Sequence record: MK931441.1
From: Escherichia phage Snoke
Reading direction: 5' to 3' (one strand)
DNA: 44,454 nucleotides
Position numbers and translations under genes: made by a program. Shown here in pieces: positions 3,349 through 42,838 of the stretch (position 1 is the stretch's first letter; each line of letters begins with the position of its first letter). A model generated the notes under the pieces. That model was not told where the DNA came from. It searched no databases and saw only the letters and a list, made by a program, of their open reading frames with translations.

Positions 3349-3370
3349 AGCCCCGAAAGGGGCTTTCTTA
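3349..3370 (+). terminator. stem-loop / weak intrinsic terminator after portal gene
   Basis: AGCCCC-GAAA-GGGGCT hairpin followed by TTCTTA. Confidence 0.4.
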
Positions 3371-3374
3371 TAGT

Positions 3375-5267
3375 ATGCTATTAACTTTAGCGCCACAGGG
3401 TTTATCTATGAGCTTACTTACATCTCTAATCAGCCACCAGATATGGCTGCAACGCACTGCATCCGGTGAGGTGAAAGACCTCGCGCCGTTCATTAAGGAG
3501 ATGCGGGACGAAATAAAACGGCAGGTGCTGTTATTCGGTGACGACGGGCGGAGCACTGCGCGACTGAATAAACTGTTACTCGACCTTGAAGAAGCGCTAA
3601 CCGGACTTACCGGCGATTGGCAAACAAAGCTGACAGAAGACCTTATGGAACTGGCGGCGTATGAGGCCGAGTGGAATGTAAAGACACTGACCACCAACGT
3701 AGATGCGGAATTTGTTACGCCTACTGCCGAACAGGTGTGGTCCGCTGCCGAGTTTCAACCCTTATCATTAAGCGACAAGCCTGTTGATTTCACTAAGCTG
3801 ATGTCGGGATGGGGTGAAACCGAAGTAGCACGTCTCGTAACCGGCGTTAAGATGGGCTTTGTTCAGGGTAAGACAACACGGCAGATTGTTAAGAATGTTG
3901 TTGGTGCTGGTGGTTTGGCGGACATTTCAGAACGTAACGCGGCTACTGTAATCCGCACCGCGCTGTCTCATGTATCCAACGAGGCCCGTAACGAGACGTA
4001 CCGCCAGAACGACGACATCATCGAGAAGTACGAGTGGGTGTCGACGCTGGACAGCCGTACCAGTACGATTTGTAGGGCCAGAGACGGAATGACGTGGGAA
4101 ATCGGTAAGGGGCCGATGCCCCCGGCCCATCCGAATTGTTTACTTGGGGACACTGTAGTATCTACCGGTAGTCCTGTTTCTAACATTTTTAAACGGGCGT
4201 ACAAAGGCACTGTAGTCTATGTCTCTACAAAGTCCGGTCGCACCTTGTCTATCACCCCAAACCACCAGGTATTGACTACCAGTGGTTGGGTTGCTTCCGG
4301 CCTTCTCAATGTAGGTGACAAGCTCGTGTGCGCTAAGGACTCTACTCTCTCTCTCAAGCATAAGGAACACAACGTTGTAGCCAAGTTCTCCGATTTGTTT
4401 AGTGCGGCTAATGTAGCGGTCAATCCTGCGGCGGTCCGTACAAGCCCAACCTCCACCGAAGACTTCCACGGCGACGGAACCGACGGCGAAGTCGAGATTG
4501 TACTTGTCGACCGCCTTTCCTGGGATAAAGTCAAGTCCGGACTGAATAAGCAAATCATTGACAAGGAACTCCCAGTGACTGCCGGCGTTGATGACTCCCT
4601 CCCTGGCTTTGGCTCTGCGAAGCAGTTCGGCATGGTCGGCCTTTCTCCCTCGGACAGCTTCGTGCGCGGCGGCAGAGAGAGCGAGGCGCTCCTCGGGAGT
4701 AGCTTTAGCCATTCTGATAAACATAGCGTCGCTACCTCCGCGAATGGTAACGCCGTTCTCTCTGAGAACGCGTATGACTGGACTACACGAAACGCCGATA
4801 ATCTTTCCGATTTCAACTGGTCCGATGCCGTTGGCGTAGAGCTTGATGATGTTGTCAATTTGGTCTTTAGTGAAGCTGATTTTTGCGGGCATGTTTATAA
4901 CCTCGAAAATGAACAGAACTGGTATCTTGCGAATGGAATTATAGCACATAACTGTCGCTCAACAACCGCGCCTGTAATCAGTTCGGAGTTCGACTTCCTC
5001 GATAAAGGCGCAAAACGCGCGGCTAAGGGCGCGGACGGCGGTATGCAGGTAAGCGCGGACACCACCTATTACGAGTTCCTGAAACAACAACCGGCATGGT
5101 TTCAGGACCAGGCGCTTGGTTCTGTTCGCGGTAAGATTTTCCGCAACAGCGGTATATCACCAGAGGAGTTTCGCGTAATATCTGTAGATGGTTTCGGGAA
5201 TCCGCTCACGCTTAAGCAGATGGCGGAACTCGATAAACGTGTTGCTGATTATCTGAAAGGGGATTAA
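3375..5267 (+). CDS. head morphogenesis protein precursor (Mu F / SPP1 gp7-like) containing an intein
   Basis: Extein carries the minor-head-protein signature DSRTSTICRARDG...PPAHPN-C-R; 630-aa precursor = about 358-aa extein plus 272-aa intein. Confidence 0.8.
   Translation: MLLTLAPQGLSMSLLTSLISHQIWLQRTASGEVKDLAPFIKEMRDEIKRQVLLFGDDGRSTARLNKLLLDLEEALTGLTGDWQTKLTEDLMELAAYEAEWNVKTLTTNVDAEFVTPTAEQVWSAAEFQPLSLSDKPVDFTKLMSGWGETEVARLVTGVKMGFVQGKTTRQIVKNVVGAGGLADISERNAATVIRTALSHVSNEARNETYRQNDDIIEKYEWVSTLDSRTSTICRARDGMTWEIGKGPMPPAHPNCLLGDTVVSTGSPVSNIFKRAYKGTVVYVSTKSGRTLSITPNHQVLTTSGWVASGLLNVGDKLVCAKDSTLSLKHKEHNVVAKFSDLFSAANVAVNPAAVRTSPTSTEDFHGDGTDGEVEIVLVDRLSWDKVKSGLNKQIIDKELPVTAGVDDSLPGFGSAKQFGMVGLSPSDSFVRGGRESEALLGSSFSHSDKHSVATSANGNAVLSENAYDWTTRNADNLSDFNWSDAVGVELDDVVNLVFSEADFCGHVYNLENEQNWYLANGIIAHNCRSTTAPVISSEFDFLDKGAKRAAKGADGGMQVSADTTYYEFLKQQPAWFQDQALGSVRGKIFRNSGISPEEFRVISVDGFGNPLTLKQMAELDKRVADYLKGD
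4137..4952 (+). mobile_element. intein (Hint domain), 272 aa
   Basis: Begins Cys1 CLLGDTVV (block A), SITPNHQVLT (block B, TxxH), ends VYNLENEQNWYLANGIIAHN (blocks F/G, terminal HN) followed by Cys+1 at 4953; splits conserved extein motif HPN|CR. Confidence 0.8.
4140..4892 (-). CDS. HTH + Vsr/DUF559-like PD-(D/E)XK endonuclease, candidate homing endonuclease encoded antisense to the intein
   Basis: Minus-strand ORF coextensive with the intein; ATG at 4892 preceded by GAGG with 8-nt spacer; N-terminal HTH (ISFTKDQIDNIIKLYANGIGPVEIGKIIGVSCSPVIRVLRENG) and nuclease signature SHWEFLVNDLL...YNLDFAVGSVAVEVFGGGW...RRRIDRYISRTKQIGELGYNVVF; ORF track gives upstream ATG at 4949 without SD. Confidence 0.6.
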   Translation of the reverse strand: MPAKISFTKDQIDNIIKLYANGIGPVEIGKIIGVSCSPVIRVLRENGVTIRGGSDAMFIRMAKATPEERLALSAAAHEAVRGRKADHAELLRRAKAREGVINAGSHWEFLVNDLLIQSGLDFIPGKAVDKYNLDFAVGSVAVEVFGGGWACTDRRRIDRYISRTKQIGELGYNVVFLMLERESRVLSAHELVTYIEKAGSNPTTGSQYLVVWGDRQGATGLCRDIDYSAFVRPFKNVRNRTTGRYYSVPK

Positions 5268-6278: not shown

Positions 6279-6305
6279 TTTATGCCTCCTGTTTAAGTTA
6301 ACTGA

Positions 6306-6334
6306 ATAGTACCCTATTATATTGGTGCGCGCAA
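6306..6334 (-). promoter_or_regulatory. sigma70-type promoter (class II: TTGCGC-17-TACTAT) for DnaN-like gene
   Basis: Minus-strand TTGCGC, 17-bp spacer gcaccaatataataggg, TACTAT; spacer conserved with promoters at 15400, 37978, 38911. Confidence 0.55.
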
Positions 6335-6400
6335 ACTATTTGTTTACGTATTCCAGATATTCCACTCAATTGTAAACGTTGGAATAAACTATTCGAATAG

Positions 6401-6429
6401 TTGACTTTTCACTGAAAATATGCTAAGCT
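6401..6429 (+). promoter_or_regulatory. sigma70-type extended -10 promoter (class III: TTGACT-17-TGnTAAGCT), copy A
   Basis: TTGACT, 17-bp spacer ending TGC, TAAGCT; promoter plus about 45 nt of downstream leader nearly identical to 37681-37757. Confidence 0.55.
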
Positions 6430-6609
6430 CCACCTGAGCTTGTGAAGTATGAACAAGCGACCGCGGCGCGGGCAGGTAACGGAGCTGGACGTAAGTCCTG
6501 AGTGTAGTTACGCTGACGCGTTCGGAAGGGCCATACTCTATTGCTTGTGCAAAAAGTAACTGGTTTACTGAGATTACGCCGTTTCTATGTTTAAATGATA
6601 AGGACTAGC

Positions 6610-6637
6610 GCCCCGCTTTAAGGCGGGGCTTTACTTA
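6610..6637 (+). terminator. hairpin plus T-tract (attenuator/terminator-like) just upstream of spanin genes
   Basis: GCCCCGC-TTTAAG-GCGGGGC followed by TTTACTTA. Confidence 0.4.
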
Positions 6638-6653
6638 TCGAGAAAGGGGAAAC

Positions 6654-7046
6654 ATGAATCTTAAAGCAACTGTCGTAGCCAGAGCATGTTTCGTCGTCCT
6701 AGCCCTAGCCTACGCACACGGCATCTATCAATACCGCAGCGGCTGGGGTGAAGGCCGTGCTAATCTCGTTTCGCAGCAACAGCAGAAAGCACAGGCTGAG
6801 CTGACGAAGAAAACACAACGGCAGCAGCAGGATGAATCAAAGGCCGCCGCCGCTGACAACGAAGGCAAGACGAAATCAGAGGTGCTTACCCGTGAAGTCG
6901 TTAAGTACATTAAAACGCCTGGCCGCAGCGTGTGCACTTTCGACGATGCTCGCGTCCTGCTCAAGTCCCACGCCGTTGCCAACGCCAATTCCATCCCCGG
7001 ATACGACGATGATGCAGCCGCCGTGCAAACTGGCACCGCCAAGTAG
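6654..7046 (+). CDS. Rz-like i-spanin (putative)
   Basis: N-terminal transmembrane segment (VVARACFVVLALAYAHGIY), Q/K/E-rich helical region, C-terminal Cys; overlapped in +1 frame by lipoprotein ORF. Confidence 0.5.
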   Translation: MNLKATVVARACFVVLALAYAHGIYQYRSGWGEGRANLVSQQQQKAQAELTKKTQRQQQDESKAAAADNEGKTKSEVLTREVVKYIKTPGRSVCTFDDARVLLKSHAVANANSIPGYDDDAAAVQTGTAK

Positions 7047-9006: not shown

Positions 9007-9033
9007 GAGAGGGACTTCGGTCCCTCTTTTCAT
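9007..9033 (+). terminator. intrinsic terminator/attenuator after capsid gene
   Basis: GAGGGAC-TTCG-GTCCCTC hairpin followed by TTTTCAT. Confidence 0.6.
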
Positions 9034-15358: not shown

Positions 15359-15399
15359 GGTGTAGCTCCTGTTCGAGTTAACATTGTTGGTGTAAGTGA

Positions 15400-15428
15400 A
15401 TAGTATCCTATTATGTTGGGGTGCGCAA
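15400..15428 (-). promoter_or_regulatory. sigma70-type promoter (class II) for minus-strand accessory island
   Basis: Minus-strand TTGCGC-17-TACTAT with spacer accccaacataatagga, identical to spacer at 37984-38000. Confidence 0.55.
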
Positions 15429-27852: not shown

Positions 27853-28152
27853 CTAACTATAATAGTTCGCTATTAGGTCGTCAACCTGTTTAAACGAACC
27901 AACGACAAAAACATTTGCACCACGTTTACGCATCCGCTCGTGCTCTCGTAGCTGGTGGGGGTCCGGCTTCGTGTTTTCATCTTTCTTAACCTCGACGAAC
28001 CAGATGACGCTGCCGGGGAGGATTACCAGCAGGTCAGGCGCTCCGTTTCTACCCTCATACACTATCTTACGAACGAGGCCGCCAAGGGCCTCGAATTGCT
28101 CTTTTGCGTATTTCTGAATCTTGCCTTCCGGAGTCATGAGCGCAAAACCCAT
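27853..28152 (-). CDS. VRR-NUC domain nuclease
   Basis: GAPDLLVILPGSVIWFVEVKK...Q motif pattern of VRR-NUC PD-(D/E)XK nucleases. Confidence 0.7.
   Translation of the reverse strand: MGFALMTPEGKIQKYAKEQFEALGGLVRKIVYEGRNGAPDLLVILPGSVIWFVEVKKDENTKPDPHQLREHERMRKRGANVFVVGSFKQVDDLIANYYS
27856..27884 (-). promoter_or_regulatory. sigma70 promoter (class I: TTGACG-17-TATAGT)
   Basis: Minus-strand TTGACG, 17-bp spacer acctaatagcgaactat, TATAGT; contains AATAG-N4-CTATT inverted repeat. Confidence 0.55.
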
Positions 28153-31557: not shown

Positions 31558-31586
31558 ACTATAATAGCTAACTATTCAGGTGTCAA
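31558..31586 (-). promoter_or_regulatory. sigma70 promoter (class I: TTGACA-17-TATAGT)
   Basis: Minus-strand TTGACA, spacer cctgaatagttagctat, TATAGT; contains AATAG-N4-CTATT. Confidence 0.6.
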
Positions 31587-34094: not shown

Positions 34095-34123
34095 ACTATA
34101 ATAGCGAACTATTCACTTGTCAA
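34095..34123 (-). promoter_or_regulatory. sigma70 promoter (class I: TTGACA-17-TATAGT) with embedded inverted repeat
   Basis: Minus-strand TTGACA, spacer agtgaatagttcgctat, TATAGT; AATAG-CGAA-CTATT at 34100-34113. Confidence 0.6.
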
Positions 34124-34187
34124 TGGGCTTTTCTAAAATAATTAATATGGTACTATTCACGCATCAACTAACTAAGGAGTAACTGAC

Positions 34188-37394: not shown

Positions 37395-37573
37395 TTCACG
37401 TTCTCCTTAATCCATGCTTCAACTTTATTACGGTCAAATGTACCCGGTAAACGGCGGCCCATTACTTTAATACAGCAGTCAGGGAATTTACCACTGCGCA
37501 GCCAGTTATTAATTGTCTGACGTGTCACACCGATACGTTCTGCTACTTCATTCTGGGTCATGTAATGTTGCAT
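37391..37573 (-). CDS. HTH DNA-binding protein (AlpA/excisionase-like fold, putative regulator)
   Basis: MTQNEVAERIGVTRQTINNWLRSGKFP helix-turn-helix; internal ATG with SD AGGAG 8 nt upstream. Confidence 0.55.
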   Translation of the reverse strand: MQHYMTQNEVAERIGVTRQTINNWLRSGKFPDCCIKVMGRRLPGTFDRNKVEAWIKENVK

Positions 37574-37604
37574 TTTTATATCTCCTGTTTGTTTGGTGAA
37601 GCTG

Positions 37605-37633
37605 AGTATAGGATAGCGGGAATGTAAAAGCAA
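37605..37633 (-). promoter_or_regulatory. sigma70 promoter (TTGCTT-17-TATACT) for HTH regulator gene
   Basis: Minus-strand -35/-10 with 17-bp spacer. Confidence 0.45.
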
Positions 37634-37680
37634 CCAAAACGCCACACAAAGTTACTAAGATACAAAAGATGCTACAGGTA

Positions 37681-37709
37681 TTGACTTTTACTAAGAAATA
37701 TGGTAAGCT
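37681..37709 (+). promoter_or_regulatory. sigma70-type extended -10 promoter (class III), copy B
   Basis: TTGACT-17-TGgTAAGCT; promoter and following leader to about 37757 nearly identical to 6401-6476. Confidence 0.55.
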
Positions 37710-37977
37710 CAGCCTGAGCTTGTGAAGTATGAACAAGCGACCGCGGCGCGCGGCAGGCGAAACGAGCACGTGTAGCGTGTGGAGTGAGGCTCGCTAGCGC
37801 GTTTGGGAGGCCCCAAGTCTATTGTAATTCCAGCCTAAGTAGCTAAGTTACTGATTTGCCGTAGGTTAGAACCGCCAGCTCACTCACTCACTCTTGGTGC
37901 CTTCGGCACCACGTTCGTTTCGTTTCGCTCGCTACCCCCTTAAACGAAAGAATCACAACGGCAACGTAACTAATCTC

Positions 37978-38006
37978 TTGCACACCCCAACATAATAGGA
38001 TACTAT
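37978..38006 (+). promoter_or_regulatory. sigma70-type promoter (class II: TTGCAC-17-TACTAT)
   Basis: Spacer accccaacataatagga; AATAG-GATA-CTATT at 37994-38007. Confidence 0.55.
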
Positions 38007-38040
38007 TCACTTATCGAAACGAGACAGAGGAGTGAGGGCT

Positions 38041-38232
38041 ATGTTTAAGAAGGGTCAGTTGGTTAAATACTCCGACGATAAACACGGCATAATTGAATTA
38101 AAATCTGCTTTATTTCCAGGAAAGTACGTAGTTACCATGCAAAATGTGAGAGGAGTAAATTCACAAATATACGTAGCGGAGGAGAACTTAAAACTAATCG
38201 GCAACAATTTTAAATTCAAAGAGGCGAAGTGA
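38041..38232 (+). CDS. hypothetical small protein
   Basis: ATG with SD GAGGAG upstream. Confidence 0.35.
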   Translation: MFKKGQLVKYSDDKHGIIELKSALFPGKYVVTMQNVRGVNSQIYVAEENLKLIGNNFKFKEAK

Positions 38233-38420
38233 TGGAAGAATTAATTTACGACGTATACGTCGACGGGGTTATCTCAGAAACGACAAGTAATAAAGATTAC
38301 GCAATAAAGCTGTATATGTATTACGCGGCCATTGTAGGAAAGATGGTAGAAGTGCGGGAGCGAACGGCATCGAATCATGGTGCCAGTGCCGACGACTCTG
38401 AGGGAGGTTGCCGTAAATGA
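38232..38420 (+). CDS. hypothetical small protein
   Basis: ORF from track, coupled. Confidence 0.3.
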   Translation: MEELIYDVYVDGVISETTSNKDYAIKLYMYYAAIVGKMVEVRERTASNHGASADDSEGGCRK

Positions 38421-38608
38421 GAATTCGTATAACTGATGTTGAACAAACATGCCCTGAGGAATACCAGGACGTTAGCCTTGCGTACTTTGGCGTCTCTGTT
38501 GGTGATGAGTTCGACGTAGGGATTAGTTGCGAATATGGGTTTGTTGTAAATCATCGCGGCGAGAATTTGTTCGTCCGTAATTCTGAATGCGAAGTTCTGG
38601 AGGACTAA
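38417..38608 (+). CDS. hypothetical small protein
   Basis: ORF from track, coupled. Confidence 0.3.
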   Translation: MRIRITDVEQTCPEEYQDVSLAYFGVSVGDEFDVGISCEYGFVVNHRGENLFVRNSECEVLED

Positions 38609-38611
38609 GTT

Positions 38612-38773
38612 ATGAGAGAAGCGTTCGAACGGTGGGCCGTCGTCGAGGGTCTGCCGGTTAACAAGGGTTCGAAGAAAGAGTACCTGAACGTTAAGACGCG
38701 TCTCGCGTGGCGGGCGTGGAAAGCTGGTGCGCAATATCGTGCCGGTATGACAGGTGGTGTAACAGGTCAATAG
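38612..38773 (+). CDS. hypothetical small protein
   Basis: 53-aa ORF below track threshold, SD GGAGG. Confidence 0.25.
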   Translation: MREAFERWAVVEGLPVNKGSKKEYLNVKTRLAWRAWKAGAQYRAGMTGGVTGQ

Positions 38774-38796
38774 TTTAGGATTTTACTGAGTGACTT

Positions 38797-38830
38797 ACGC
38801 TGCTACACAGCAGCGTATCATTTTTCTCAT
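38797..38830 (+). terminator. intrinsic terminator
   Basis: ACGCTGCT-ACAC-AGCAGCGT hairpin followed by ATCATTTTT. Confidence 0.65.
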
Positions 38831-38910
38831 TTTTGTCCTATTTCACCAAACGCAACAATCGAATCGACTATTGCAGGAGATGCAATAATACAAACACCAA
38901 TAAAATTTAC

Positions 38911-38939
38911 TTGCACGCTGGGGAAGAATAGGATACTAT
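38911..38939 (+). promoter_or_regulatory. sigma70-type promoter (class II: TTGCAC-17-TACTAT)
   Basis: Spacer gctggggaagaatagga; AATAG-GATA-CTATT at 38927-38940. Confidence 0.55.
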
Positions 38940-38970
38940 TCATTTACACAAACGAGAGGAGAGGCAGAAT

Positions 38971-39120
38971 ATGGTTACTTTGATGATTATGGAGTTCGAA
39001 AACAGCGCTGCAACTTACCGCGAGATGACTATGGCGCAGGCGTACCACCTGGCTAAACACAGCAACTTCTACAAGGCTCAAATCATTAATGAGTTTGGGG
39101 TAATTGACTATGAATTTTAA
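38971..39120 (+). CDS. hypothetical small protein
   Basis: 49-aa ORF below track threshold, SD GAGAGGAG. Confidence 0.25.
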   Translation: MVTLMIMEFENSAATYREMTMAQAYHLAKHSNFYKAQIINEFGVIDYEF

Positions 39121-39382
39121 CAGCTACACCGTGACCGTTGATTTTGAGGGGCTGGAGTTGCCCCTCCCTAACAACTACCGGTACATAACGCGCGATAGTA
39201 ATGGGTTTATTCAGGGGTGGAGGAACAAACCGACGGACACTGAGTTCGGGATGTCAGGAGGGGAAGAGCTGCCGATCACTTTCGGGCACCAAAGTAGTAA
39301 TGAAGAACTTAAAACGGTGATTCGTAAGTATCGTCGCCGCGGTAACACCGGGCTTATCGCAATAACAGGCGCTGTTGAATAA
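39110..39382 (+). CDS. hypothetical protein
   Basis: ORF from track, ATG at 39110. Confidence 0.3.
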   Translation: MNFNSYTVTVDFEGLELPLPNNYRYITRDSNGFIQGWRNKPTDTEFGMSGGEELPITFGHQSSNEELKTVIRKYRRRGNTGLIAITGAVE

Positions 39383-39513
39383 GTGAGAGGAGAGACAGAA
39401 GATGTATAAGTATTTGACGGTGGAGAAACTGGAGCAGCTTTATGCTGAGTTGCGAGTTTGCAGCGTATGCAACGGCGACAACGAGCATGTTTACGGAGAA
39501 CTGGAGGTAGCTG

Positions 39514-39990
39514 ATGAGTAACAAAAACGAAGTATTCGAGTACCTGATTGACCAGTTACGGCAGCAGGTAAATAGTAACCAGTGCGAAGACCTGGCGCAC
39601 GAGGTGCTGTCACTCAAGAATCAGTTACGTGATGTGTCAGAACATATTAAGGAGTTGCATAAGGCGTTGGCTACAGCTACAGGTGACGTAGGCGCTTATA
39701 TAGCAGCAGAGCAATCTGGTTGCCGTAAGGAAGATACTCAGTACAACGCCTGGAGGCCGCATTATGGTGCACGACAACCTGTGCCAGATGGGACTATGGT
39801 ATTTATCCGGTATCGCAACGGGGAGGAGCTGAAACACAGTGTAGCAGCAGAAAAGAGGTTGTGGATTTGGGATGGAACATACGCAGACATAGTGGAATAC
39901 AAGATTGACACACAGGAATGCGAGCACAATTGGTTATATAGTAAACACAAAAGTGGCTTCGTTTGCTTTAATTGTGGGGCGCGTAAGTAA
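39514..39990 (+). CDS. hypothetical protein
   Basis: 158-aa ORF; C-terminal Cys pairs (CEHNW...CFNCG). Confidence 0.35.
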   Translation: MSNKNEVFEYLIDQLRQQVNSNQCEDLAHEVLSLKNQLRDVSEHIKELHKALATATGDVGAYIAAEQSGCRKEDTQYNAWRPHYGARQPVPDGTMVFIRYRNGEELKHSVAAEKRLWIWDGTYADIVEYKIDTQECEHNWLYSKHKSGFVCFNCGARK

Positions 39991-40193
39991 TGACCAGCAT
40001 CTTATTTATCTGGACACTTACCGCAGGCCAGATGCAACTGGCGGCATCAGAAACGTTTTACTCGATGGAGGCGTGCCAGTCAGCGGCACGCGCCGCAGAG
40101 AACGCGCACTTCCTGTTTCAGGGTGACAAGCCCAACGATTCAGAGGTACGCGCTATCTGCTCACCTAAGCGACTTGGTAAACAGGAGAAGTGA
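39990..40193 (+). CDS. hypothetical protein
   Basis: ORF from track. Confidence 0.3.
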   Translation: MTSILFIWTLTAGQMQLAASETFYSMEACQSAARAAENAHFLFQGDKPNDSEVRAICSPKRLGKQEK

Positions 40194-40195
40194 TT

Positions 40196-40480
40196 ATGGT
40201 ACAGAGATATGATTTAGTAGGGGATATGGATGGCAACTGTAACCTGAATGAAGCGAGAATGGAGAAATCTGACGACGGGATATATGTTTACTATCGCGAC
40301 TACAAGGAACTGGATGACAGTTTCCAGGACTACATAATAACCACTGACATGGAAATAGAAGGGCTTGTGGCAAGACTGGCAGAAGTAAACGCTGAGTTAC
40401 AGAAATACAAAGACCAGTTCCCTGATTACGTCGAGTGCGCGAACTGTGGGTCAATTACACATGTGGAAGGGGTGGAGTGA
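40196..40480 (+). CDS. hypothetical protein
   Basis: ORF from track; start region ATGGTACAGAGATATGA repeated at 40480. Confidence 0.3.
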   Translation: MVQRYDLVGDMDGNCNLNEARMEKSDDGIYVYYRDYKELDDSFQDYIITTDMEIEGLVARLAEVNAELQKYKDQFPDYVECANCGSITHVEGVE

Positions 40481-40674
40481 TGGTGCAGAGATATGAGGTA
40501 AAAGCGTGGGGCCTGCCAGAGCCTGAGATGGCTGAGTACGCATACGGCGATTATGTAGAGTATGACGCTTATCTGAAACTTGAAGCAAAGTTACGTGAAT
40601 TCGCCGAACAGGTAATGTACGCACCTTGTTCGAAAGTTACAGAAGAAATGGCCCGCGAGATTCTCGGAATATGA
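40480..40674 (+). CDS. hypothetical protein
   Basis: ORF from track; N-terminus MVQRY as in upstream gene. Confidence 0.3.
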   Translation: MVQRYEVKAWGLPEPEMAEYAYGDYVEYDAYLKLEAKLREFAEQVMYAPCSKVTEEMAREILGI

Positions 40675-40964
40675 GCCTCGCAACTGACATCCTGAAACGA
40701 AGCGGCCTTGCGCCGCTGTCGCCGAGAGCAAACACTCAGATATACAAGCGCCGCCGTAATACGCTGTACCCAGAGATACAAGAACGGCGTAAAGCTATCC
40801 GCGCCTGTGGATTCCAGAACGGGAAAGCCGTGAATCTCGGTGAGTTTAAAACACAAGAACGCGCCGCAATCGCTAATCGACTATTTAATTACTGGAAATC
40901 GCTGGGGTACGATGATATTCCGACGAAACCCCAGAGACGACAATACATCTGGAGGCACAAATGA
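40671..40964 (+). CDS. hypothetical basic protein
   Basis: ORF from track, coupled. Confidence 0.3.
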   Translation: MSLATDILKRSGLAPLSPRANTQIYKRRRNTLYPEIQERRKAIRACGFQNGKAVNLGEFKTQERAAIANRLFNYWKSLGYDDIPTKPQRRQYIWRHK

Positions 40965-42790: not shown

Positions 42791-42809
42791 TATTTTCTGT
42801 AATGACTAG

Positions 42810-42838
42810 TTGACTATTATTCTGACACCAATTATATT
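42810..42838 (+). promoter_or_regulatory. sigma70 promoter (TTGACT-17-TATATT)
   Basis: -35, 17-bp spacer and -10 directly after terminator. Confidence 0.5.

Follow-up and report, generated by a model that had tools for sequence, protein, structure and literature searches.

What does a phage gain from roughly 325 nucleotides (nt) of untranslated sequence placed between a promoter and the first open reading frame (ORF) of a cluster of small genes? The question is raised by a locus of Escherichia phage Snoke (sequence record MK931441.1), whose complete Kagunavirus genome (Guernseyvirinae) is the window analyzed here, 44,454 nt (44.5 kb) in length. An initial annotation of positions 37681 to 38030 had described a promoter and leader, termed copy B, that resemble a copy A elsewhere in the genome, and had proposed that the locus gives rise to either a small RNA (sRNA) or a regulated leader. 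Several of its statements hold. The leader, given as about 320 nt, measures about 325 nt from the start site inferred near 37716 to the ATG; the first ORF does begin at 38041, with the Shine-Dalgarno (SD) sequence GGAGTGAGG ahead of its ATG; and the nested class II promoter (TTGCAC-17-TACTAT) is present and belongs to a motif class with 12 members. We find that the first ~95 nt of the leader are a member of a new, previously undescribed family of structured RNAs, and this assignment is well supported. The leader probably regulates the genes that follow it. Tentatively, we read the region as a whole as the promoter and 5′ part of a ~325-nt noncoding leader RNA of the + strand that may act in cis and regulate by moving among several states, a role suggested by anatomy, covariation and thermodynamics. 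Beyond what had been annotated are the pairing of the repeats with the domain, the family-wide occurrence of the domain, and the origin of copy B, which looks like a lineage-specific duplicate of the copy A promoter and domain cassette.

Guernseyvirinae, among them Kagunavirus and Jerseyvirus, are some of the most often isolated phages of E. coli and Salmonella for therapy and biocontrol. To our knowledge, gene regulation in this group is essentially undescribed, and our literature search found no description of this leader RNA. Published RNA-seq of a Kagunavirus has gene-level resolution and holds no information on leaders (PMC12645636).

A structured RNA domain at the 5′ end of the leader

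A pattern scan of IMG/VR, together with GenBank hits, yielded dozens of copies of the domain in several sequence variants. Folded singly, all variants show the same architecture: a hairpin P1 of 6-7 base pairs (bp), which begins 2-3 nt past the inferred start site in both copies, then a two-base spacer and a long irregular hairpin, in which P2a/P2 is followed by P2b/P3, an asymmetric internal loop and the apical hairpin P4, with conserved purine-rich loops. We built a covariance model (R1) on eight copy A sequences, nearly identical to one another, and their folded structure; it finds 61 copies in the Guernseyvirinae loci examined. In the window it recovers copy A at 6434-6573 with 180.7 bits and copy B at 37714-37856 with 63.6 bits (E 4e-14), and minimum free energy (MFE) folds reproduce the domain in each (z = -3.4 for copy A and -2.1 for copy B). 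The initial annotation was right that the two copies share a promoter and a leader element (37681-37750 matches 6401-6470 at 87% over 70 nt), but the element was put at 45 nt and the similarity spans about 185 nt.

Substitutions among the copies preserve the predicted pairs to a degree that strongly supports the fold. The alignments used for this count were fitted to the model, which favors the structure, yet the margin is large: 98.2% of cells are paired among the 61 copies, with seven pairs changed on both sides, and 96.8% once type J leaders are included, with 17 of 29 pairs changed on both sides. The covariation score of the alignment that includes type J was reached by none of 500 column shuffles, and control structures slid by 1-3 columns gave 31-38% pairing. 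Compensatory changes are also visible in plain MAFFT alignments. The type J leader, present in many Jerseyviruses (for example fmb-p1 and SETP3), scores 28-41 bits with R1 and has a P1 helix of wholly different sequence (ACGCT/AGCGT, versus GCTTGT/ACAAGC). Two G-U pairs in P2 are invariant across the alignment, which indicates that the fold is that of the + strand transcript. The domain is followed by a mostly unpaired conserved tail, whose motifs are common to copy A, to the A leaders of Jerseyvirus and to B leaders that do not carry the domain.

Rfam 15 gave no match anywhere in the window at gathering thresholds, and E-value searches around both leaders returned matches at chance level only (E 0.9-9). 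A tRNA-like element was also looked for, and none was found.

A conserved stretch of this kind could instead be a small protein-coding gene, or a site acting at the DNA level such as an operator or origin. Three gene calls in relatives would fit the former: CPT_Shashou_007, a 36-amino acid (aa) hypothetical protein over the copy A domain at 6449-6559 (+), CPT_Shashou_056, a 35-aa hypothetical protein on the opposite strand over the copy B domain at 37709-37816 (-), and a 40-aa ORF annotated over the leader of CTH7. The latter would fit a palindrome, AAGCTCAG/CTGAGCTT, that covers the -10 element and start site. However, the frame, strand and even presence of an ORF vary between copies and subtypes. 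Copy A has an ATG-initiated ORF of 36 aa over the domain, copy B one of 22 aa, and subtype V3, which has no ATG, none at all; variants differ by 1-2-nt indels. Because of this lost ATG and these indels, the domain is, to judge from the alignments, not protein-coding, and the hypothetical proteins recorded over it in GenBank are very likely spurious gene calls. Moreover, the substitutions preserve base pairs, including G-U pairs that are sensible only for a + strand RNA. We therefore consider a coding or DNA-level function highly improbable.

Two other candidate features were examined and rejected. A pseudoknot between the P1 loop (AGUAUG) and a downstream CAUACU fails because the downstream segment varies freely and without compensation. 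A leader peptide or mini-ORF, with GGRAGG and a UUG about 11 nt further on, fails because type J variants have CUG or AUC in place of the UUG and the ORF length ranges from 1 to 10 codons.

Distribution of the domain and origin of copy B

The copy A leader of the type found in the window (type K) occurs in 179 phage records at 95-99% identity, and the type J leader, homologous to it by R1, occurs in 268. The neighboring helix-turn-helix (HTH) gene marks 442 Guernseyvirinae records, so that the domain at position A is essentially universal in this group; in total the family comprises about 450 Kagunavirus and Jerseyvirus genomes. The class I promoter and the leader are conserved together in 180+ genomes. 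A second copy at position B is present in only about 40 records, including this genome. Scans of IMG/VR and bacterial genomes with loose patterns detected no members outside Guernseyvirinae. The IMG/VR contig scan returned 120+ stretches, mostly by chance, with only two of the new ones (L061-L115) real by R1; the bacterial scan, itself poorly chosen, returned 120 chance matches in GC-rich bacteria and none that R1 recognized.

Copy A lies directly ahead of the spanin-scaffold-major capsid operon and its leader is the most conserved local stretch, with a mean pairwise identity of 0.93-0.98; the spanin coding sequence mostly shows 0.74-0.94, and one 50-nt window of it 0.33. Just upstream of the copy A promoter (window about 6330-6385), conservation drops sharply from 0.95 to below 0.3 in mosaic sequence, because the gene at this place is not the same in all genomes (a sliding clamp gene in this one, a head-decoration gene in others). 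The boundary is a recombination junction.

For the 3′ half of the A leaders, RNAalifold recovered only one structure in common to types K and J, a hairpin ahead of the SD sequence with 7 bp and two compensatory pairs. The outer helix of this pre-SD hairpin, read from the same alignment, covaries as well (GATAAG/CTTATC in type K versus TATACG/CGTATA in type J), and its U tract is weak (TTTACTTAT in type K, TTAGCGTAT in type J). A segment of the A leaders past CTATT repeats the 5′ strand of P1 (GCTTGTG in type K, 6543-6566; GCTTTCAG in type J, locus L142, 474-492). This repeat could make a second P1-like hairpin, and both copies of it change together between the types. In one record, Jerseyvirus jersey UPWr_S1 (locus L143, 230-260), the whole long hairpin of copy A is deleted, with 47 nt missing between two ACCGCG repeats and P1 and the 3′ tail kept. 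Either the long hairpin is dispensable in culture or the record contains an assembly error.

The B leaders of SETP3, XY1 and EC3-1 have another promoter-proximal module, which gives no R1 match, and share the downstream motifs and the class II promoter. Since related B leaders carry a different 5′ module, copy B would represent a lineage-specific replacement by the copy A cassette; the module of SETP3, XY1 and EC3-1 may be an analogous one. The B leaders of these three phages (L057, 520-1010 (-); L059, 480-1010 (-); L058, 1-640 (-)), which do not carry the domain, contain their own promoter-proximal hairpin and a long GC hairpin whose CCCAA loop is conserved and which also seems to covary (GTTCCGC/GCGGAAC versus GCG/CGC). 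Three recombinant leaders (L031, 1608-1750; L048, 11335-11477; L056, 6741-6883) join an A-like domain variant to a B tail of subtype (ii), which indicates that domain and tail are exchanged as modules.

Pairing strands downstream of the domain in copy B

The short direct repeats reported in the initial annotation are present, as 3.8 units of CTCA and as GTTTCGTTTCG at 37917-37927, and because they are complementary to the loops of the domain they can be understood as pairing strands. On either side of a GC-rich hairpin lie the (CTCA)n tract and GTTTCGTTTCGC (UCGUUUCGC in the RNA), complementary to those two internal loops in which segments a and b of the domain are largely located. The hairpin itself had been given as GGTGCC-UUCG-GGCACC; it exists, but its loop is TTC and the earlier form is one base too long (Table 1). 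Its stem passes our terminator scan, but the tail is CGTTCGTTTC, the downstream U tract (CGUUCGUUUC) is weak, and the tail doubles as strand a′, so that we call the hairpin no more than terminator-like. Strand a′ begins 9 nt 3′ of the hairpin.

The pairing of a with a′ indicates selection on sequence 3′ of the hairpin. In subtype (i), to which the match GCGAAACGA/TCGTTTCGC belongs, all nine positions are complementary; in subtype (ii), all nine are again complementary with changed sequence (ACGCAACGC/GCGTTGCGT), and the change is thus compensated. By our estimate, the chance of a 9-nt match between windows of this size is roughly 1e-3, so that two independent matches are very unlikely to have arisen by chance. 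The pairing of b with b′ extends over 5-8 nt. Both pairings cross helix P2, and hence they imply an alternative fold or else tertiary contacts between loops and strands. The number of (CTCA) units differs between phages, with 3.8 here and about 6 in phage Golestan (locus L011, 4172 onward), and in a subtype (ii) leader (L017) a (GTGA)n run replaces (CTCA)n.

The hairpin flanks are also complementary, over 8 + 7 nt, to the ribosome-binding region of the first ORF, in which motifs a and b recur. Thus TCGTTTCG, within the tract that follows the hairpin, is complementary at all eight positions to CGAAACGA upstream of the SD sequence. The duplex between flanks and ribosome-binding region is predicted at -32.0 kcal/mol, compared with -23.4 +/- 3.3 kcal/mol in shuffled sequences (7 of 500 as low). 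An antiterminator stem overlapping the terminator was considered as well and rejected, as the two copies have none in common and their hairpins show no sequence relationship.

These data bear on whether the locus produces a trans-acting sRNA or decoy of ~200 nt, which would be made from a strong constitutive promoter, end at the hairpin (near 6635 in copy A and near 37915 in copy B) and work by targeting mRNAs of the host or the phage or by sequestering a host protein. In both copies a promoter, a structured RNA and a terminator-like hairpin follow one another in a unit of about 200 nt, the conservation of copy A extends beyond the domain across the whole leader, and (CUCA)n could be antisense to the SD sequence of ORF1 on class II transcripts. 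Nevertheless, the U tracts are weak, and the selection on a′ falls 9-17 nt past the copy B hairpin, which implies that transcripts running past the hairpin matter. Likewise, the copy A hairpin and the spanin start codon are 25 nt apart and have no other promoter between them, so that read-through must feed the spanin, scaffold and capsid genes. We regard an sRNA of this kind as improbable. Of the two options raised in the initial annotation, the regulated leader is thus the better supported, by the covarying 5′ RNA and by the compensated a:a′ pairing, the latter arguing against a discrete sRNA that ends at the copy B hairpin.

It is also conceivable that the structures serve as a processing or stability signal, with the irregular hairpin of ~23 bp and its asymmetric loop forming a site of the RNase III type, and with P1 and the pre-SD hairpin protecting the ends of the product. 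The helix is about two turns long in all variants and has its internal loop beside the apical hairpin, P1 is at the extreme 5′ end, and in the A leaders a conserved hairpin whose outer helix covaries precedes the SD sequence by 12-25 nt. However, this proposal leaves the invariant unpaired GGAAGG and UCUAUUG and the invariant tandem G-U pairs unexplained, and it does not account for the compensated a:a′ pairing of copy B. Such a signal is in our view as improbable as the sRNA, and the two are the serious competitors of our preferred reading.

A model of successive folds

Our preferred reading as a cis-acting leader is prompted in part by the folds predicted as the transcript lengthens. Up to about +195 nt, the MFE structure contains the domain fold. 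From about +205 to +315 nt, it is a four-way junction composed of a:a′, P4, b:b′ and the GC hairpin; for a leader of 230 nt, the junction is predicted at -80.8 kcal/mol, versus -69.5 kcal/mol with P2 forced. In MFE structures of +325 nt and longer, the domain is restored, the SD sequence pairs with (CUCA)n and the flanks pair with the ribosome-binding region.

The nascent leader might therefore pass through these folds in succession, with the domain forming first. Once the sequence to ~37928 has emerged, the hairpin flanks would invade the domain and create the four-way junction; once the ribosome-binding region has emerged, the domain would re-form and the flanks would mask the SD sequence. 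If so, whatever stabilizes the domain would decide the translation of ORF1 from transcripts that begin at the class I promoter of copy B (P_B), and possibly also read-through of the hairpin. Candidates for such a stabilizer include RNA polymerase itself, as with put RNA, and a phage or host factor. The two promoters at copy B would yield two mRNA isoforms, of which only that from P_B has the strands complementary to the ribosome-binding region. The nested transcripts from the class II start lack these masking strands and would not be subject to such control. For copy A, we envisage the same domain as the platform, with a different 3′ hairpin ahead of the SD sequence.

Several observations weigh against this reading. 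MFE predictions on RNAs of 200-330 nt are fragile, and the X1-Y duplex taken alone is marginal relative to shuffled sequences (25 of 500). Complementarity to the ribosome-binding region is down to 5 nt, uncompensated, in two of the loci (L044 and L085), and it is absent where the first gene differs. The recombinant leaders L031, L048 and L056 are without a:a′, so that some phages can do without the long-range pairing. In copy A, which is the universal copy, the loops of the domain and the flanks of the hairpin are not complementary to any comparable extent, and hence the copy B switch cannot explain the core function of the domain. One Jersey isolate has lost the long hairpin through the 47-nt deletion described above. 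Finally, start sites, 3′ ends and abundance are all deduced.

Promoters, neighboring genes and feature coordinates

The class I promoter matches the sigma-70 consensus at five of six positions of the -35 hexamer (TTGACT) and at three of six of the -10 hexamer (TAAGCT, with A2 and T6 present), with a TG extended -10 element and a 17-bp spacer. Because TAAGCT fits at just three positions, the promoter was not called by a simple sigma-70 scan requiring at least four of six per hexamer, and we infer its activity. The class I pattern TTGACTTTT-N6-AAATRTGNTAAGCT has exactly two matches in the window, at 37681-37709 and 6401-6429, versus 0 expected. Transcription from P_B would begin near 37716. The -10 hexamer recurs 3-5 nt downstream in both copies (TAAGCT..TGAGCT, 37704-37721 and 6424-6441) and in type J (TACGCT..TACGCT, locus L142, 368-392), and in copy B this repetition makes the palindrome mentioned above. 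The repeat might function as a pause element that depends on sigma-70, or as an operator.

The class II promoter, from which transcription would begin near 38013, contains a near-palindromic motif, ATAATAGNNNACTATT, that has 12 matches in the window versus 0.75 expected. Its sites include 3369-3384, 6305-6320, 15399-15414, 27859-27876, 31561-31576, 34098-34113, 34142-34157, 37992-38007, 38925-38940 and 42805-42820. On both strands, they overlap the spacer and -10 element of promoters resembling those of sigma-70 (such as TTGACA-17-TATAGT, found on the minus strand at 34123, 31586 and 27884), and a phage regulator probably has its operator in the motif. In a paper on a relative, it was named "phage RNA polymerase promoter" (PMC9825357); contrary to this label, these phages encode no RNA polymerase gene.

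The surroundings of the locus are well conserved in Escherichia phage Shashou, which is 99.8% identical over 37400-38300 of the window and agrees in annotated gene order. Copy B occupies the intergenic gap from which two units diverge. Leftward runs an early cluster with an HTH protein and a helicase-primase, and rightward a cluster of small ORFs that leads to an HslV-like protease, holins and an endolysin. Strong + strand terminators lie within the units downstream of both copies, for example at 9007-9028 (after the capsid gene) and at 38796-38817. A scan of the 10 small ORFs at 38041-40964 detected no known antiterminator protein among these 10, whose matches were PHROGs of unknown function and DUF7170 only; a novel one may exist.

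Table 1. Positions of the leader elements in the window (position 1 is the first nucleotide).
Feature	Position	Strand	Description
Class I promoter P_B	37681..37709	+	-35 TTGACT at 37681-37686; 17-bp spacer ending in TGG (extended -10); -10 TAAGCT at 37704-37709
5′ RNA domain, copy B	37716..37806	+	P1 hairpin 37718-37723 : 37733-37738; long irregular hairpin 37741-37806
Long hairpin, copy B	37741-37806	+	P2a/P2 (two G-U pairs invariant); P2b/P3; apical hairpin P4, 37767-37779
Internal-loop segments a and b	37757..37789	+	a, GCGAAACGA, 37757-37765; b, GGAGTGAGG, 37781-37789 (GAGTGAG at 37782-37788); flank P4
Conserved 3′ tail, copy B, mostly unpaired	37805..37870	+	GGGAGG 37805-37810; TCTATTG 37818-37824; TAAGTAGCTAAGTTACTGA 37836-37854; GCCGTAGG
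(CTCA)3.8 tract, strand b′	37879..37893	+	Complementary to b and to the SD region of the first ORF
GC-rich hairpin	37895..37911	+	TGGTGCC-TTC-GGCACCA; 7 bp with 5 GC pairs, 3-nt loop; terminator-like
GTTCGTTTCGTTTCGC tract	37912..37928	+	Includes strand a′, TCGTTTCGC, at 37920-37928, 9/9 complementary to a
Class II promoter	37978..38007	+	TTGCAC-17-TACTAT (37978-38006), overlapped by near-palindromic ATAATAGGATACTATT at 37992-38007
Translation-initiation region of first ORF	38015..38043	+	CGAAACGAG 38015-38023; SD GGAGTGAGG 38029-38037; ATG 38041-38043; motifs a and b recur
Copy A	6401..6653	+	Class I promoter 6401-6429; domain 6436-6527; conserved tail; hairpin 6610-6629; SD; spanin ATG at 6654

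Implications and comparison with known systems

A strongly covarying RNA heads the capsid operon in about 450 genomes in which it is now unannotated or mis-annotated as a hypothetical protein. Recognition of the domain corrects this annotation, provides an obvious handle on late-gene control and offers a compact, portable regulatory cassette. If the leader senses a factor or ligand, then it would represent a new class of regulatory RNA for which a natural experiment is already available, in the form of genomes with one or two copies, two subtypes of expression platform, recombinant leaders and a natural deletion.

The leader shares features with several regulatory systems. Similar to the RNase III sites of the T7 early leader (R0.3), it places between promoters and the first gene a hairpin that is about two helical turns long and contains an asymmetric internal loop, and it differs in having an extra conserved hairpin and single-stranded motifs. 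The lambda late leader, with its PR′-qut-6S RNA-tR′ arrangement and Q, likewise has a constitutive-looking promoter and an untranslated leader of ~200 nt that ends in a hairpin, with lysis (spanin) and head genes next and a -10-like hexamer that recurs just downstream. However, Q recognizes DNA, whereas the constraint observed here is on RNA structure, and no homologue of Q or N was found among the 10 ORFs examined. The nut/N system of lambda differs further, in that the leader contains no boxB-like hairpin; we take UCUAUUG to bear only a loose resemblance to boxA.

A closer parallel to the reading we prefer is found in riboswitch and attenuator leaders with anti-SD and anti-anti-SD strands. 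In these, as here, lineage-specific strands come after a 5′ domain that is conserved and covaries, and the strands of copy B can pair with either the domain or the ribosome-binding region in predicted folds that succeed one another. The differences are that the masking strands of copy B lie on both sides of a separate hairpin and reach across P2 to internal loops, rather than forming a simple competing stem, that no Rfam family matches, and that copy A is without this platform.

Antitermination by the put RNAs (putL and putR) of phage HK022 suppresses both pausing and termination, needs no added factor and proceeds via the zinc-binding domain of the beta′ subunit of RNA polymerase. Put RNA is a cis-acting structured RNA of two stem-loops, present in two copies, for which no dedicated protein is known to be required (PMC9378689). 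By analogy, the nascent domain could bind the elongation complex and make it resist both the leader hairpin and the intrinsic terminators downstream. This proposal overlaps our preferred reading, because antitermination could be one input or output of the leader. Its layout can be recognized in the window, where the two stem-loops of the domain stand within 2-3 nt of the putative start sites, behind the same promoter in both copies, and are followed by terminator-like hairpins at 6610 and 37895 and by strong + strand terminators inside the downstream units at 9007 and 38796. The failure to find a known antiterminator protein among the 10 small ORFs downstream is also consistent with it, as is the fact that put, too, is present in HK022 as two similar copies behind two early promoters (PMC9378689).

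Other observations speak against put-like antitermination, which we judge to be unlikely, even if it is the most interesting candidate for what the domain itself does. R1 gave no match to putL or putR of phage O276/HK022, and a put model built from only these two sequences (R2) gave no match at either leader in the window with filters off and E up to 10. Membership of the domain in the put family is thus rejected, as neither model finds the other RNA by sequence or structure. The Rfam result says nothing on this point, since Rfam holds no put family (the HK022 put region itself gave no relevant match). The leader hairpins have weak U tracts (for example TTAGCGTAT in type J), so that there is perhaps little to antiterminate locally. 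Moreover, most genomes contain copy A alone, and the natural deletion of the long hairpin is apparently viable.

A bolder proposal joins these elements: the domain would be a second, independently evolved class of nascent RNA that reprograms host RNA polymerase without a protein, in the manner of put, and is shared by an entire subfamily of virulent siphophages, and the copy B switch would read its occupancy and gate translation of the first gene. We consider this a long shot. If the domain does act on RNA polymerase, it would be only the second type of RNA-only antiterminator known in phages. Compared with put, the domain is longer (~95 nt versus ~70 nt) and of another architecture, most Guernseyvirinae genomes carry a single copy, and the local hairpins are weak terminators. 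What the two have in common is a structured RNA of two stem-loops directly behind sigma-70-type promoters and, in this genome, its presence as two similar copies that head two terminator-containing phage units.

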